A stretch of 64,000 nucleotides of DNA, from the NCBI RefSeq assembly GCF_965279435.1, contig NZ_CBDIHY010000002.1, positions 315,128 to 379,127 of the forward strand, given 5' to 3'. Positions 3,624 to 9,353 of the stretch are shown here, piece by piece. Within the stretch, counting starts at the first letter, position 1. The number at the start of each line of letters is the position of its first letter. Origin of the DNA: Pararhizobium sp. (GTDB lineage: Bacteria > Pseudomonadota > Alphaproteobacteria > Rhizobiales > Rhizobiaceae). The notes beneath the pieces are model-generated. The model worked only from the letters and a program-made list of their open reading frames with translations, was not told where the DNA came from and did not search any database. A program made the translations under genes and the position numbers.

Positions 3624-4703
3624 TTGCAGAAAGCGGTCCTCCGCAGCCTGCCTGAGCCAAACAACTCCCGCCAGCATCGCTGGCGGGAGTTGTCTTTGCT
3701 CGGGCCTTTTTCAAAATGGCTCGTGTCCTTTGCGATGACGCTGCTGGGCCTCGCGCTGGTGACATTTGCCATGACGCGGCTCTCGCCGATTGATCCCGCC
3801 TTGCAGATGGTCGGCGACCATGCCAGCCAGTCCACCTACCAGGCCGCTCGGCTTGAGCTCGGCCTTGACCAGCCGCTTCCAGTTCAATTCCTGCGCTATC
3901 TGCAACAGGCGGCCTCCGGCAATTTTGGCCAGTCGATCTCGACAGGCCAACCGGTCGCCTCCGATATTGCCCGAACGTTCCCCGCCACGCTGGAGCTTGC
4001 TACCGCTGCGATCATCATCGGCAGCGTCATCGGCCTGACGCTCGGTATTGCCGCCGCCATGCGCCAGGGCGGGCTGGTCGATGCAATTGCCCGCTTCGTC
4101 TCGCTGTTTGGCTATTCCGTGCCGATCTTCTGGCTCGGCCTGTTGATGCTGCTGCTGTTTTACGCGCGCCTGCATTGGGCGCCCGGGCCGGGGCGGCTCG
4201 ATGTCATGTTCCAATATACAGTGAAGCCCGTCACCGGCTTTGCCCTGATCGACACCTGGATGTCGGGCAAGGCCGGAGCATTCCGCGATGCGCTGGCGCA
4301 TCTGGCCCTGCCCGCCATCGTTCTGGCTTTTCACGCCCTTGCCGGGATTTCCCGACTGACGCGCGCCTCGATCCTCTCCGAGCTTGGGCAGGAATATGTG
4401 CTGACTGCGCGCGCCAAGGGCGCGAGCCTTTCCCGTGTCGTCTTTGTCCACATCCTGCCGAACATTGCCGGCACGCTTCTCACCGTCATCGCGCTTGCCT
4501 ATGCCAGTCTGCTCGAGGGCGCAGTGCTGACCGAGACAGTGTTTGCCTGGCCGGGTATTGGCCGCTACCTGACGACTGCGATGTTTTCCGGGGACATGCC
4601 CGCCATTCTCGGCGCCACGCTGGTCGTCGGCAGTTGCTTCGTGCTCCTGAACGCGCTCACCGATGTGGCTGCGGCCCGAATCCACAAAGGGCAGGCTCGA
4701 TGA
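3624..4703 (+). CDS. Peptide ABC transporter permease (DppB-like)
   Basis: LGLDQPLPVQFLRY, TARAKG EAA loop and ETVFAWPGIG. TTG start uncertain. Confidence 0.9.
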   Translation: MQKAVLRSLPEPNNSRQHRWRELSLLGPFSKWLVSFAMTLLGLALVTFAMTRLSPIDPALQMVGDHASQSTYQAARLELGLDQPLPVQFLRYLQQAASGNFGQSISTGQPVASDIARTFPATLELATAAIIIGSVIGLTLGIAAAMRQGGLVDAIARFVSLFGYSVPIFWLGLLMLLLFYARLHWAPGPGRLDVMFQYTVKPVTGFALIDTWMSGKAGAFRDALAHLALPAIVLAFHALAGISRLTRASILSELGQEYVLTARAKGASLSRVVFVHILPNIAGTLLTVIALAYASLLEGAVLTETVFAWPGIGRYLTTAMFSGDMPAILGATLVVGSCFVLLNALTDVAAARIHKGQAR

Positions 4704-5560
4704 GTGCGCTGACAACACCGCAAATTTCGCCGGCACGCTGGCTGCGGCTCCGCTTGTCCCGTTCGCCATCGTTGACGACCGGGGCCGCCATCATCCTGAT
4801 CGTGCTGTTTATGGCGATCTTTGCACCGTGGCTTGCGCCGTATGATCCGACGCTTCAGGAAACCGCTAACCGGCTGATGGCACCGAGCCAGCAGCACTGG
4901 CTGGGGACCGATGCGTTCGGCCGTGATATTCTCTCGCGGCTGATCTATGGCGCCCGTCCGACGCTGCTGCTGGTGCTGTTCGTCGTGCTGTTGATGGCGC
5001 CCGTGGGTATCACCATCGGTATTCTCGCAGGTTATCTCGGCGGTTTCGTCGAGCGCAGCCTTATGCGCATCACCGATATCGTCATGTCATTTCCACGCCT
5101 GCTGCTTGCCTTCGCCTTTGTCGCCATCATGGGACCGGGTCTGCTCAATGGTGCGCTGGCGCTAGCGCTGACCAGCTGGCCCGCCTATGCGCGGCAGGCG
5201 CGTGCCGAAACGGCAAAGCTGGCCAAAAGCGATTATCTTGCTGCTGCAGAAATGGTCGGCATCAAGGGCCCTCGCCTGTTGTTCGGCCATGTCCTGCCGC
5301 TTGTACTACCGTCGGCTGTCATCCGCCTGGCGCTCGATCTCTCGGGCATCATTCTGGCTGCAGCCGGACTGGGGTTTCTTGGCCTTGGCGTTCGTCCGCC
5401 AACGGCGGAATGGGGCTCGATGGTCGCCGACGGCACGCAGGTGATCTTCGATCAATGGTGGATCGCTGCAACGCCGGGCTTTGCCATCCTCATCACCTCC
5501 TTCGGCTTCAACCTGCTCGCCGACGGTCTGCGCGACCTGATGGATCCCCGCAATGACTGA
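4700..5560 (+). CDS. Peptide ABC transporter permease (DppC-like)
   Basis: HWLGTDAFGRDILSRLIYGAR and PPTAEWG. ATGA overlap with the upstream gene. Confidence 0.92.
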   Translation: MSALTTPQISPARWLRLRLSRSPSLTTGAAIILIVLFMAIFAPWLAPYDPTLQETANRLMAPSQQHWLGTDAFGRDILSRLIYGARPTLLLVLFVVLLMAPVGITIGILAGYLGGFVERSLMRITDIVMSFPRLLLAFAFVAIMGPGLLNGALALALTSWPAYARQARAETAKLAKSDYLAAAEMVGIKGPRLLFGHVLPLVLPSAVIRLALDLSGIILAAAGLGFLGLGVRPPTAEWGSMVADGTQVIFDQWWIAATPGFAILITSFGFNLLADGLRDLMDPRND

Positions 5561-6386
5561 TGCCCTGCTGACAGTGGAAGACCTCACCATCTCGTTTCCA
5601 TCGGATAACGGGCCTGTACCGGTCGTCAAATCCATCTCGCTCACGGTCGGCCGCGAGATCGTCGCCGTCGTCGGTGAATCCGGATCGGGCAAATCGCTGA
5701 CCGGGCGGGCGATCATGGGCCTCCTGCCGCGCCGCGCGCACGTTCGCGCATCCCGCATGCTGTTCGAGGGCATCGATTTGCAGACGCTCGGTCCATCCGG
5801 CTGGAACGGTTTGCGCGGCAGCGGCATGGGGCTGATCCTGCAGGATCCGAAATTCTCGCTCAACCCAGCCCATCGCGTCGGCCGCCAGGTCGAGGAGGCG
5901 CTGCTGCTGCACACCAAGCTTTCTGCAAGGGAGCGCAAGCAGCGCGCCCTCGATATGCTGGTAAAGGTCGGATTGCCGGATCCGGAACGGATTTATGCAA
6001 GCTATCCCGCAGCACTCTCCGGCGGCATGGGTCAGCGCGTGATGATTGCCGCCATGCTGATCAACCGGCCGAAGCTGATCATTGCCGACGAACCGACCTC
6101 CGCACTTGATCGCGGTCTGCAGGATCAGGTGCTCACCCTCCTGCGTTCGCTGACGGAGGAATTCGGCATGGGGCTGCTGCTGATCAGCCATGATCTGCAG
6201 CAGGTGTCGCGTTATGCCGACCGGGTGATCGTCATGCGCCAGGGGGAGATCGTCGAGCGTCTGCCGGCATCCGAGCTTGCGCAGGCGCAAACGGCCTACA
6301 CGCGCGGCCTCTGGGCAGCCCGGCCATCGTTCGCCACCTACGGAACGCGGCTGCCGGTGTTTGAAGACAGTGGAAACCCATCATGA
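5553..6386 (+). CDS. Peptide ABC transporter ATP-binding protein (DppD-like)
   Basis: Walker A GESGSGKS, LSGGMGQRV, IIADEPT. Confidence 0.93.
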   Translation: MTDALLTVEDLTISFPSDNGPVPVVKSISLTVGREIVAVVGESGSGKSLTGRAIMGLLPRRAHVRASRMLFEGIDLQTLGPSGWNGLRGSGMGLILQDPKFSLNPAHRVGRQVEEALLLHTKLSARERKQRALDMLVKVGLPDPERIYASYPAALSGGMGQRVMIAAMLINRPKLIIADEPTSALDRGLQDQVLTLLRSLTEEFGMGLLLISHDLQQVSRYADRVIVMRQGEIVERLPASELAQAQTAYTRGLWAARPSFATYGTRLPVFEDSGNPS

Positions 6387-7114
6387 TATCAACCGTTTCG
6401 GTCGAACAGCTGTCGATTTCCTTCCCGTCAGCCAAGACACGCTTCACGGCCGTCAGCAACGTCGCGTTTTCTGTTGAGGAAGGTCAAACCTTCGGCCTGA
6501 TCGGTCCGTCCGGATGTGGCAAGACCACTGTTCTGCGCGCCATTGCCGGGCTCAATACCAGCTGGACCGGCTTGATCGACATTTTCGGAGCCAAGCTCGA
6601 ACCGGGCCGGAAGATCACCGGTGACACCCGCTGCAATATCCAGATGGTATTTCAGGACCCCTATTCGTCGCTGCATCCCCGGCACCGGATCGCGCATATC
6701 CTTGGCGAGCCGCTGAAGGTTCACGGCGCTGAAGGTATCGATGCCGCGGTGCGTATCGCCCTTGATCAGGTCGGCCTTTCACCAGCCATTGCAGGGCGTT
6801 ATCCCCACCAGTTGTCGGGCGGCCAGCGGCAGCGTGTCGCGATTGCCCGCGCTTTGCTGTTGAAGCCGAAACTGTTGCTGCTTGATGAGCCGACATCCGC
6901 CCTCGATGTGACCGTTCAGGCAGAAATCCTCAACCTGCTCAACGATCTGAAGGCATCGCATCGCATGACGTTCATCCTCGTCAGCCATGATGCGGGGGTG
7001 ATTGGCCACATGTGTGATCGCGGCGTCCTGATGAGCCAAGGACGCATCGCCCGTGAACTCGACCGTGCGGCGCTATCGGAATTGACAGAAGAAACCGTCG
7101 AGGCCGCCGCCTGA
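6383..7114 (+). CDS. Peptide ABC transporter ATP-binding protein (DppF-like)
   Basis: [23 protein letters not shown]. Confidence 0.93.
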   Translation: MISTVSVEQLSISFPSAKTRFTAVSNVAFSVEEGQTFGLIGPSGCGKTTVLRAIAGLNTSWTGLIDIFGAKLEPGRKITGDTRCNIQMVFQDPYSSLHPRHRIAHILGEPLKVHGAEGIDAAVRIALDQVGLSPAIAGRYPHQLSGGQRQRVAIARALLLKPKLLLLDEPTSALDVTVQAEILNLLNDLKASHRMTFILVSHDAGVIGHMCDRGVLMSQGRIARELDRAALSELTEETVEAAA

Positions 7115-7156: not shown

Positions 7157-7777
7157 TCAGTGGGACATGCCGGACTTGATCGCCTGTTCGGCAAGCGCCT
7201 CGGCATTCTGCGCTGGGGGCAGCTCGTAATTTCTGCGAGCCTTCGCTTTCATTTTCAGCAGGGACAGCAGCTCGTAGCCGCCTGTCCACCGGCCGAAACC
7301 GCTTTCGATGTTGATGTGGCCGGCCGGCCCGAGGTTTCTGACCTGCGTCTTCCAGAGGCGGCTGTAGAGCGACAGGCTTTCCAGCGGCATGTAGATATCG
7401 TTCAGGCTTCCGACCGTGATGGTTGGAAAGGGCAGAGTGCGGGTCGGCATCCGGCCAAAATGGATCGCGCCCGGATGAAGCCTTTCGGTGGTCGACAGAT
7501 CGCAGGGGGCAACCAGCAACGCGCCCTTGATCAATCTTGCCGATGGCCGGTCCGCACATTTCGCGGCCAGCAGGCAACCAAGGCTGTGCGCAACGATATA
7601 GGCTGGCCCTTCCTGAACAAGCACCTCTTCAAGACGGTCTGTCCAAGCTTCAACCTTTGGGGATTTCCAGTCGTCCTGCTCGACCAAACGGCTTTCCTTA
7701 TCGTCCTTGAGCCAGAACCGTTGCCAATGCCCGTCATCGGACCCGTTCAGCCCAGGCAGGATCAGGGTGGATGTCAT
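7157..7777 (-). CDS. Alpha/beta hydrolase, RBBP9/YdeN family
   Basis: LILPGLNGS..HWQ, nucleophile elbow AHSLG, LLVAP, and HINIESGFG. GAGGA RBS before ATG 7777. Confidence 0.85.
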   Translation of the reverse strand: MTSTLILPGLNGSDDGHWQRFWLKDDKESRLVEQDDWKSPKVEAWTDRLEEVLVQEGPAYIVAHSLGCLLAAKCADRPSARLIKGALLVAPCDLSTTERLHPGAIHFGRMPTRTLPFPTITVGSLNDIYMPLESLSLYSRLWKTQVRNLGPAGHINIESGFGRWTGGYELLSLLKMKAKARRNYELPPAQNAEALAEQAIKSGMSH

Positions 7778-7804
7778 TTGGTTGTTCCTCACCGTCTAAC
7801 GCCG

Positions 7805-7990
7805 TCAGCTTTGGAAAGAGCGAGACCGTTCCAGTGCTGAGATTTCCTGCGAAATCTCGGATATGCGCTCGCGCAGATCACGTCGTGCCCGGTAACCCAT
7901 TCCGGAAAAGCCCGCATCATCCAGGTCCAGCTTTGCTTCCAACTGGTCCCTCATGGTTTGAAGGCGGTCAAAATGTCTGAGCAAGCTCAT
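7805..7990 (-). CDS. Small coiled-coil-like hypothetical protein (61 aa)
   Basis: GAGGAC RBS 5 nt before ATG. Helical heptad-like composition; lies in tandem with the hydrolase gene. Confidence 0.55.
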   Translation of the reverse strand: MSLLRHFDRLQTMRDQLEAKLDLDDAGFSGMGYRARRDLRERISEISQEISALERSRSFQS

Positions 7991-8347
7991 TATGTCCTCA
8001 CATCTGCAACGCGAAATCCCATGATCTGTCGATCAGGGTAGAGTGAGCATTATTATCCATAAATTTAGTAGACAAAAGAAACTGCAGACTATCCGTGACC
8101 GCGATTGCGGAAATTCGAGCCTGCCGGTTGTTGAGGACACGGAAAAACTCACGGGAAAAGTGTTTTTCAGCTTTCAGGATGACATGGGCGCCAAGCGTTC
8201 AGGGAAGTGGCGACTGGCAAACGGTTACCCCAGGCGTCATGCGCAGAAACGGATGGATGCGGGTTTCACGGTGGGTAAAAAAGTGCGGGTTGAGACCGGA
8301 CTTTGGGCAAAACGTTTAAATTCGGGAACGGAGCAGGATGTCATTCG

Positions 8348-8376
8348 TTGTTTGCGGCCGCTGCATTGAGCATACT
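8348..8376 (+). promoter_or_regulatory. Sigma70-type promoter for the small RNA
   Basis: TTGTTT(8348-8353)-17 nt-CATACT(8371-8376), ending 6 nt before the first hairpin of the sRNA. Confidence 0.55.
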
Positions 8377-8382
8377 GACGGC

Positions 8383-8492
8383 GGTTGAAGTTCTCGGTGC
8401 CCTCTCCTCCCGGGCCATCGTTTTTCAACCGTTCCCTCTGGAGGTTAATCCTTCAAAACTCAGGGTCTCCGTTTACTGGAGGCCTTTTTTTT
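8383..8492 (+). ncRNA. AbcR-like (alpha-r15 family) trans-acting small RNA
   Basis: About 110 nt. 5' stem GGTTGAA/TTCAACC enclosing the anti-SD CTCTCCTCCC, second motif GTTCCCTCTGGAGGTT, then a Rho-independent terminator. Motifs and order match AbcR1/2 as recalled. Confidence 0.8.
8462..8492 (+). terminator. Rho-independent terminator of the sRNA
   Basis: GGTCTCC/GGAGGCC stem followed by 8 T. Confidence 0.85.
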
Positions 8493-8522
8493 GACCTGTT
8501 TTTGAAGCGTCGCACACCCGCA

Positions 8523-9353
8523 CTATGCGGTTCCCGTTCGCCGCCGCAGGATCTCGATCTCGTGCCGGTCAAGAGCGCGGGCCGACCCTTTCGCCAACTC
8601 GCCCAGCTTGATATCGTCGATCGCGACGCGAACCAATCGAAGGCATTCGATATCCAGGCCCTTGAGCATTCTCCGGATCTGACGGTAGCGGCCCTCACGC
8701 AGCTCGACTTCCAGCCAAGTGCTTCTTCCTCCCGACCGCAGAATCTCGACGGATGAAGCCTTGAGCATCTCGCCGCCCTCGCATACGCCGCGGCGCATAT
8801 GGGCAATCATGTCGTCCGTCGGGGTGCTCCTCACCTGCACGTGATAGATCTTCCCGACATTGGTGACCGGATCGAGCAGGCGTTGGGCGAGCACCGTATC
8901 ATTGGTGAACAGCAGCAATCCCTCGCTTGCCTTGTCCAAACGGCCGACGGGGGAAAGGAAGGGATTGTCCATCTGCGCAAGGCAATCGAACACCGTTGGG
9001 CGCCCTTCAGGATCGACCCTTGTCGTCACCATACCACGTGGCTTGTTGAGCATGAGATAGACGCTGGATTGCGCAACCAGCCGGATGCCGTCGACCGCAA
9101 TGATGTCCTTATGAACGTCTGCCCATGTCAGGATATCGGTGACCACCCGCCCGCCCAGCGTCACGCGCCGTTCGGCGATCAGTGTTTCGGCTTGCGTGCG
9201 CGAACAATAGCCAAGTTTGGAAAGCGCACGGCAGATGGTTGCGCGTGCGCCGCTGTCGAATGCTTGTTTAGCCAAGTCGAAGTATTCCGGAAGCTTTGCT
9301 GCCTGGACTGCGCTGAGACACGCCACATCGTTTGCAGTTGCGCAGCCAATCAA
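8523..9353 (-). CDS. rRNA pseudouridine synthase (RsuA/RluB/E/F family); start uncertain
   Basis: S4-like domain (ALSKLGYCSRTQAETLI), LNKPRGMVTT, catalytic GRLD, and EGRYRQIRRM. Confidence 0.88.
   Translation of the reverse strand: MIGCATANDVACLSAVQAAKLPEYFDLAKQAFDSGARATICRALSKLGYCSRTQAETLIAERRVTLGGRVVTDILTWADVHKDIIAVDGIRLVAQSSVYLMLNKPRGMVTTRVDPEGRPTVFDCLAQMDNPFLSPVGRLDKASEGLLLFTNDTVLAQRLLDPVTNVGKIYHVQVRSTPTDDMIAHMRRGVCEGGEMLKASSVEILRSGGRSTWLEVELREGRYRQIRRMLKGLDIECLRLVRVAIDDIKLGELAKGSARALDRHEIEILRRRTGTA

Follow-up and report, generated by a model that had tools for sequence, protein, structure and literature searches.

Our analysis of the window (the whole stretch of 64,000 nucleotides from Pararhizobium sp., a soil bacterium, that was analysed) revealed a genuine member of the alpha-r15/AbcR family of small RNAs at positions 8383-8491 of the plus strand, the third copy of the family in this genome and an extrachromosomal one. 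In all likelihood it is an independent gene for a trans-acting sRNA of about 110 nt, a third alpha-r15/AbcR paralogue carried by a 910-kb repABC replicon, whose transcript and function we infer. Purifying selection acts on the RNA and approximately 120 nt upstream of it in 13 congeneric species, and the megaplasmid copy probably serves to silence genes of nutrient uptake, as do its chromosomal siblings.

The sequence-only reading of the region had proposed an AbcR/alpha-r15-like sRNA here, together with an Infernal search with the Rfam ar15 model as a check. This search (cmscan, whole window against Rfam 15) yielded a full-length match at exactly 8383-8491, covering positions 1-112 of the ar15 model (RF02345) with 51.5 bits, above the gathering score of 40, and an E-value of 1.4e-7 counted for the whole window and library; the three-hairpin fold described below also bears out the proposal. 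The match is the single one above threshold in the window and was recovered in the whole-genome search as well. At this site cmscan retained ar15 as the best match and discarded a single overlapping one of lower score that belongs to the same clan, and a permissive Rfam scan of 7700-8600 added only a chance match to ylbH on the other strand (17.8 bits, gathering score 50, E 0.33). The Rfam score of the window copy is about half that of the canonical chromosomal copies (~100 bits). The locus deserves the label of an ar15/AbcR-family sRNA gene in the annotation.

The source genome consists of three contigs of 4.43, 0.91, and 0.35 Mb. A RepC gene was found on each of the two smaller contigs, which are therefore repABC replicons; the window copy sits on the 0.91-Mb secondary replicon (C2). 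Genome-wide, exactly three ar15 matches are present: the window copy and two chromosomal ones (105.9 and 98.8 bits), located 90 nt apart on the 4.43-Mb contig. The latter form a tandem (G000:C3:4370337-4370660) flanked by a LysR-family gene and an ArsR-family gene, and this lysR-AbcR-AbcR-arsR order is the arrangement described for AbcR1/AbcR2 in Rhizobiaceae. As the canonical chromosomal tandem is present, the window copy is a third one, residing on a repABC replicon, in agreement with the initial suggestion of an extra copy on an accessory replicon. Rhizobiaceae genomes as a rule have a third alpha-r15 gene outside the chromosome, and the plasmid copies show fragmented microsynteny (del Val 2012, PMC3346310).

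The sRNA lies in an intergenic gap, convergent, as had been seen from the sequence alone, with a pseudouridine synthase gene (8523-9353, minus strand; PF00849 and S4 domain). Among public records, plasmid p2 (900 kb) of Pararhizobium qamdonense T808 comes closest to the locus; hydrolase, small ORF, sRNA element, and pseudouridine synthase follow one another there as they do here. A 61-aa ORF of the window (7805-7990, minus strand) has no Pfam family above threshold and is kept in the nine closer orthologous loci with 85.7% DNA identity; its P. qamdonense counterpart is annotated as 'hypothetical protein' (WP_328518513.1). The 130 nt upstream of this ORF (7991-8120), including the AT-rich stretch GCATTATTATCCATAAATTTAGTAGACAAAAG, are 77% conserved and could possibly be its promoter or leader. 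A peptide-type ABC importer operon encoding two permeases and two ATPases (3624-7114, plus strand) stops roughly 1.2 kb upstream of the sRNA, outside the conserved neighbourhood, P. qamdonense having DUF4360 and copper-protein genes there. The operon's solute-binding-protein leader is absent from the top predicted sRNA targets.

The features of the gene and its upstream region are collected in Table 1.

Table 1. Features of the third ar15 copy and of its upstream region (window coordinates).
Feature	Position	Strand	Basis
Conserved upstream promoter module (~-121 to -36), presumed transcription-factor site(s)	8262-8347	+	Conservation
Block A, GACTTTGGGCAAAACGTTTAA	8299-8319	+	Conservation
Palindrome AAACGTTT inside block A (-73 to -66)	8310-8317	+	Sequence
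Conserved block AGGAyGyCATTCGTTGTT, starting in the upstream module	8335-8353	+	Conservation
Putative sigma-70-type core promoter: -35 TTGTTT (8348-8353), 17-nt spacer, -10 CATACT (8371-8376)	8348-8376	+	Best hexamer pair, inferred
SL1, 5' hairpin	8383-8430	+	MFE, centroid, RNAalifold consensus
SL1 loop, 9 nt, UCUCCUCCC	8403-8411	+	Fold
aSD1, CUCCUCCC, inside the 9-nt loop	8404-8411	+	Exact 8-mer, identical to the published aSD1 (PMC8844928)
Linker with variant aSD2, GUUCCCUC (published motif UUCCCCUC)	8431-8438	+	Unpaired in MFE
SL2, short hairpin UGGAGG / CCUUCA	8439-8455	+	Fold, RNAalifold
A/U-rich single strand AAACUC, presumed Hfq-binding signature	8456-8461	+	Unpaired in fold
Rho-independent terminator: 10-bp stem, 5-nt loop (hairpin 8462-8486), U tail	8462-8492	+	Terminator scan, fold

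The RNA folds with -40.6 kcal/mol (z = -4.07), and none of 200 dinucleotide shuffles folds as well. The MFE and centroid structures coincide in the three-hairpin architecture of the ar15 family, and the RNAalifold consensus on 13 orthologues agrees with it. The structural elements pointed out earlier were recovered in this fold: a 5' hairpin (8383-8430) exposing the motif CUCUCCUCCC (8402-8411), a second C/U-rich element, GUUCCCUCUGGAGGUU, at 8431-8446, whose 5' part is single-stranded and whose 3' part belongs to SL2, and a clean terminator with a U run extending to 8492. The loop of SL1 is closed by CCC/GGG, leaving 9 nt open; pairing beyond these would cost an opening energy of 3.9-7.9 kcal/mol, whereas the chromosomal AbcR1-like copy, with its 14-nt loop, needs 0.2 kcal/mol. 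In the known family members, aSD1 in the 5' loop and aSD2 between SL1 and SL2 each independently silence many transport and metabolic mRNAs (PMC8844928), and experiments in S. meliloti, A. tumefaciens, and B. abortus have demonstrated both motifs as well as Hfq dependence (PMC8844928, PMC3712013, PMC7486931). The seed string CTCTCCTCCCGG is invariant in all 13 orthologues. The aSD2 of the window copy (UUCCCUC), unpaired between SL1 and SL2, is one C short of the published motif. This deletion is common to the nine closest orthologues, while the four distant ones hold the exact 8-mer with the canonical CCCC; the loss happened once and has been kept ever since. The description of the seed context as divergent (CCCG rather than CCCA, and one C fewer) also holds against the AbcR1/2 genes of the same genome, with CCCGG vs CCCAG in the first motif and GUUCCCUC vs GUUCCCCUC in the second.

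An A/U-rich Hfq signature has been described for all alpha-r15 members (PMC3712013). In the window copy, CAAAACTC of the A/U stretch is conserved across the orthologues, and the free U tail (8487-8492) provides a second Hfq-type sequence signature; an hfq gene is present in the genome (G000:C3:3322859).

A sigma70-like promoter had also been read from the sequence, and its hexamers (TTGTTT-N17-CATACT) are indeed present there. The putative core promoter ends 7 nt before the modelled 5' end of the RNA, G at 8383, and matches the E. coli consensus at 7 of 12 positions, the -35 hexamer being weak; a generic sigma-70 scan over 7900-8700 reported no promoter. The assignment is based on position, on likeness in layout to the chromosomal AbcR1-like copy, and on conservation. 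The layout and score of the core are the same as in the AbcR1-like copy, the first gene of the tandem (TTGCGA-N17-CATACC), and the -35 block CATTCGTTGTT and the -10 positions G81, C82, A83, A85, and T87, including the key A at position 2 and T at position 6 of the hexamer, are invariant in the 13 orthologues.

Transcription of AbcR1 needs LsrB/VtlR acting via a GCAT-N3-TG-N3-T box, and that of AbcR2 needs RpoH1 (PMC8844928, PMC7486931). The strict box is absent within 150 nt upstream of all three ar15 copies; this test has little power, since the genome's own AbcR1-like promoter is among those without a strict match and the box occurs 963 times genome-wide. The window copy has neither the strict box of the AbcR1 subtype (expected at about -61 to -49) nor an adjoining LysR gene that could correspond to its lsrB/vtlR neighbour. 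The best upstream match to the promoter of the AbcR2 subtype, CTTGAA-N16-CCTATAT, comprises 6 of 13 positions. The second gene of the chromosomal tandem (AbcR_b) possesses an RpoH-like promoter, ATTGAA-N16-CCCACAT (10 of 13), like AbcR2 of S. meliloti. The conserved module upstream of the core shows indels between orthologues. In a regulon search of the same genome, no other copy of block A was found at up to four mismatches, and the matches to the core and to block B look like chance. The 390-nt spacer 7991-8382 contains no conserved ORF (indels; 42-50% identity in its middle part).

Full-length orthologues of the gene, with 79-96% identity, were identified in 12 other congeneric species. Among the 13 orthologues, mean pairwise identity is 87.6-90.3% over the RNA (8383-8492), reaching 93% in the seed loop and 96% in aSD2 with SL2; it is 72-76% in the promoter module (8262-8382) and 41.6-49.8% in the adjacent upstream spacer (8121-8261). 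Of the cells in the 31 pairs of the consensus structure, 97.5% are standard pairs; sliding the partners by 1-3 columns lowers this share to 37-60%. Three consensus pairs changed on both sides, and SL1 shows compensatory changes at pairs 1:50 (GC/AU/GU), 8:43, and 18:34. All six pairs of SL2 are invariant and hence uninformative for or against the structure, while in the terminator 96.9% of cells are paired across the orthologues, with many one-sided G-C/G-U/A-U changes. The covariation score of 0.169 (shuffled mean 0.136) was reached by one of 500 shuffles; the covariation is modest, as expected at such divergence, and agrees with the fold.

The flanking genes are different in the four most distant orthologues, all of which keep intact the unit of about 230 nt that extends from approximately -120 to the terminator. 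The neighbours are a serine acetyltransferase gene and an HTH-cupin regulator gene in G005, and a ParB-like gene and a rearranged hydrolase gene in G028. As promoter and RNA are kept as one module amid changed flanks, they behave like an autonomous gene under selection and not like a relic or an accessory to a terminator. At the G028 locus (L016, G028:C1), the ParB-like gene is found upstream, and a truncated Ser_hydrolase gene (895-1419; 174 aa, profile positions 55-164) lies 3' and not 5' of the sRNA, the neighbourhood being rearranged around the intact sRNA module.

The chromosomal AbcR tandem is present in all 38 genomes of the genus, in which the number of ar15 matches varies from two to seven per genome. 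The highest number belongs to P. qamdonense (G035), and five matches each were found in G014, G008, G017, and G034. The lineage of the window copy occurs in 13 of the 38 species. Its members score 43.8-89.4 bits with the Rfam model, the window copy being among the more derived ones, near the bottom of this range. A lineage-specific covariance model built from the 13 orthologues gives about 120 bits on members and about 55 on copies that are canonical or belong to other extra lineages; applied to 251 Rhizobiaceae genomes (135 genera), it found nothing above ~67 bits outside the genus, to which the lineage thus appears restricted. Extra copies of other kinds in the genus fall into separate lineages of a more canonical type (110-119 bits with Rfam, ~56 with the lineage model). 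Several of them outscore the chromosomal tandem; the genus therefore has, besides the lineage of the window copy, at least one more extra-copy lineage that is closer to the canonical form.

A duplicate AbcR gene on an accessory replicon could also be silent or decaying, that is, no longer expressed or usefully regulating. This would fit the ar15 score of the window copy, 51.5 bits against ~100 for canonical copies, the downward drift of scores along the lineage, the 1-nt deletion in aSD2, the weak -35 hexamer, and the presence of the lineage in only 13 of the 38 species; the plasmid copy of S. meliloti, Smr15A (pSymA), is barely detectable on Northern blots (PMC3346310; also PMC3712013). We nevertheless consider decay unlikely, given that the RNA is 88-90% identical over 13 species and the adjacent spacer only 42-50%, that the seed CTCTCCTCCCGG is invariant and the stems stay paired through one- and two-sided changes, and that the -35 and -10 hexamers and the upstream blocks are conserved, the module staying intact through rearrangements of its flanks. 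Even the one-C deletion in aSD2 has been stably inherited in nine species.

The end of the terminator hairpin and the convergent gene's stop codon (8523) are 31 nt apart, and adjacency to the pseudouridine synthase is kept in the nine closer orthologues. The element could accordingly be viewed as a bidirectional terminator or a 3' structure serving that gene, with an incidental likeness to AbcR; the A-rich run before the stem on the plus strand means that the hairpin could also end minus-strand transcription. However, a terminator would need far less than a full-length match to ar15 together with a conserved promoter of its own, and the modules of G005 and G028 are conserved with no pseudouridine synthase as a neighbour, which makes such a role very improbable. 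A small protein-coding gene overlapping the element has a practically negligible probability. Mechanically called ORFs do overlap it (8303-8494 and 8385-8756 on the plus strand, 8237-8428 on the minus strand), but a coding reading of 8383-8491 is excluded because single-nucleotide indels separate the orthologues inside the element, and conservation tracks the RNA structure and the seeds rather than codons. A further ORF, 8043-8369, has no Pfam match and crosses the spacer 8121-8261, which is only 42-50% identical. An sRNA gene of its own is the reading that we retain.

For a crude genome-wide ranking of predicted targets of this sRNA, we used gene calls of our own together with RNAduplex and the opening energies of the two partners. 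The seeds were limited to the loop, as the background became uninformative (mean about -19 kcal/mol) once stem nucleotides were included. Among the ten best predicted targets of the first seed there are five solute-binding proteins (two Peripla_BP_4, C2:46109 and C3:2207553; Peripla_BP_6, C1:137611; TctC, C2:466498; and SBP_bac_3, C2:417560) and one ABC ATPase. With the seed of the AbcR1-like chromosomal copy, used as a positive control, seven of the top ten were solute-binding proteins. This enrichment is weak evidence, since any anti-SD sequence favours strong Shine-Dalgarno sites. The two top-ten lists have one gene in common, which fits a target range partly unlike that of AbcR1; the in-silico ranking is consistent with the earlier suggestion that it may differ, which stays a prediction. 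The best predicted target, a solute-binding-protein gene (C2:46109), is confined to G022, apart from a partial copy in G021, and absent from nearly all carriers of the sRNA; being accessory and not co-occurring with the sRNA, it cannot represent the conserved function. Four of the five best predicted seed-1 sites are on secondary replicons (C2:46109, C1:137611, C2:466498, and C2:417560), which may only reflect the richness of these replicons in transporters.

From these features and from the experimentally studied relatives, the following mode of action could be proposed. Transcription would proceed from TTGTTT-N17-CATACT, starting near 8383, and end at the terminator; Hfq would bind through the A/U stretch and the U tail; and the two C/U-rich motifs would pair with Shine-Dalgarno regions of mRNAs and repress their translation. 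Periplasmic solute-binding proteins belonging to ABC, TRAP, and TTT transporters would be the chief targets. As both the seed flanks (UCUCCUCCC-GG vs UUUUCCUCCC-AG) and the promoter differ, the third copy probably responds to a signal different from that of the chromosomal AbcR copies and probably prefers ribosome-binding sites of the GGGAGGAGA type, its target set overlapping that of AbcR1/2 only partly. A more specific proposal, possible but tentative, is that the lineage represents a functionally specialised, genus-restricted 'AbcR3'. Its own signal would act via the conserved -121 to -36 module, which contains the palindrome AAACGTTT and neither an LsrB nor an RpoH signature, and its seed, with the 9-nt UCUCCUCCC loop and a short aSD2, would be redirected to leaders of the GGGAGGAGA type, mostly of transporters encoded by secondary replicons. 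Nothing relevant was found in the literature under the names 'AbcR3' or 'third AbcR'.

If the 'AbcR3' proposal is true, the megaplasmid has its own post-transcriptional control of nutrient uptake. The window copy leaves the known working of the AbcR family unchanged and adds to it a conserved third paralogue lineage, in a genus whose sRNAs are unstudied. Its seed, promoter module, and candidate targets give concrete handles on the reasons for the retention of further AbcR copies on the accessory replicons of rhizobia. In the family survey of 2012, the sole plasmid copy probed, Smr15A, was barely expressed.

Compared with AbcR1/AbcR2 of S. meliloti, Agrobacterium tumefaciens, and Brucella abortus, the window copy has the same three hairpins within about 110 nt, with the exact aSD1 in the 5' loop and a C/U-rich aSD2 in the SL1-SL2 linker, followed by GGAGGUU in SL2, an A/U stretch, and a U-tailed terminator; its predicted targets are likewise rich in periplasmic solute-binding proteins. 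It differs from them in its location on a repABC megaplasmid, outside the chromosomal slot between lysR and arsR, and in its 5' stem (GGUUGAAG vs AGCUGAUGC). The seed loop comprises 9 nt with the CCC/GGG closure, compared to about 14 nt, aSD2 is one C shorter, and the promoter lacks both the LsrB/VtlR box of PabcR1 and the RpoH1 signature of PabcR2. Like Smr15A from pSymA of S. meliloti and other plasmid alpha-r15 genes, it is an extra extrachromosomal paralogue outside the tandem, with fragmented microsynteny; however, it is not an orthologue of Smr15A, as the lineage model finds nothing above ~67 bits outside the genus in the 251 Rhizobiaceae genomes. NfeR1/alpha-r14 ('cuckoo') is also an anti-SD, multi-copy rhizobial family with plasmid copies, Hfq-independent or Hfq-dependent, and has some targets in common with AbcR1/2. 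The window copy is set apart from that family by the cmscan result, in which only ar15 was retained, and by its layout of two motifs and three hairpins, which is that of ar15.
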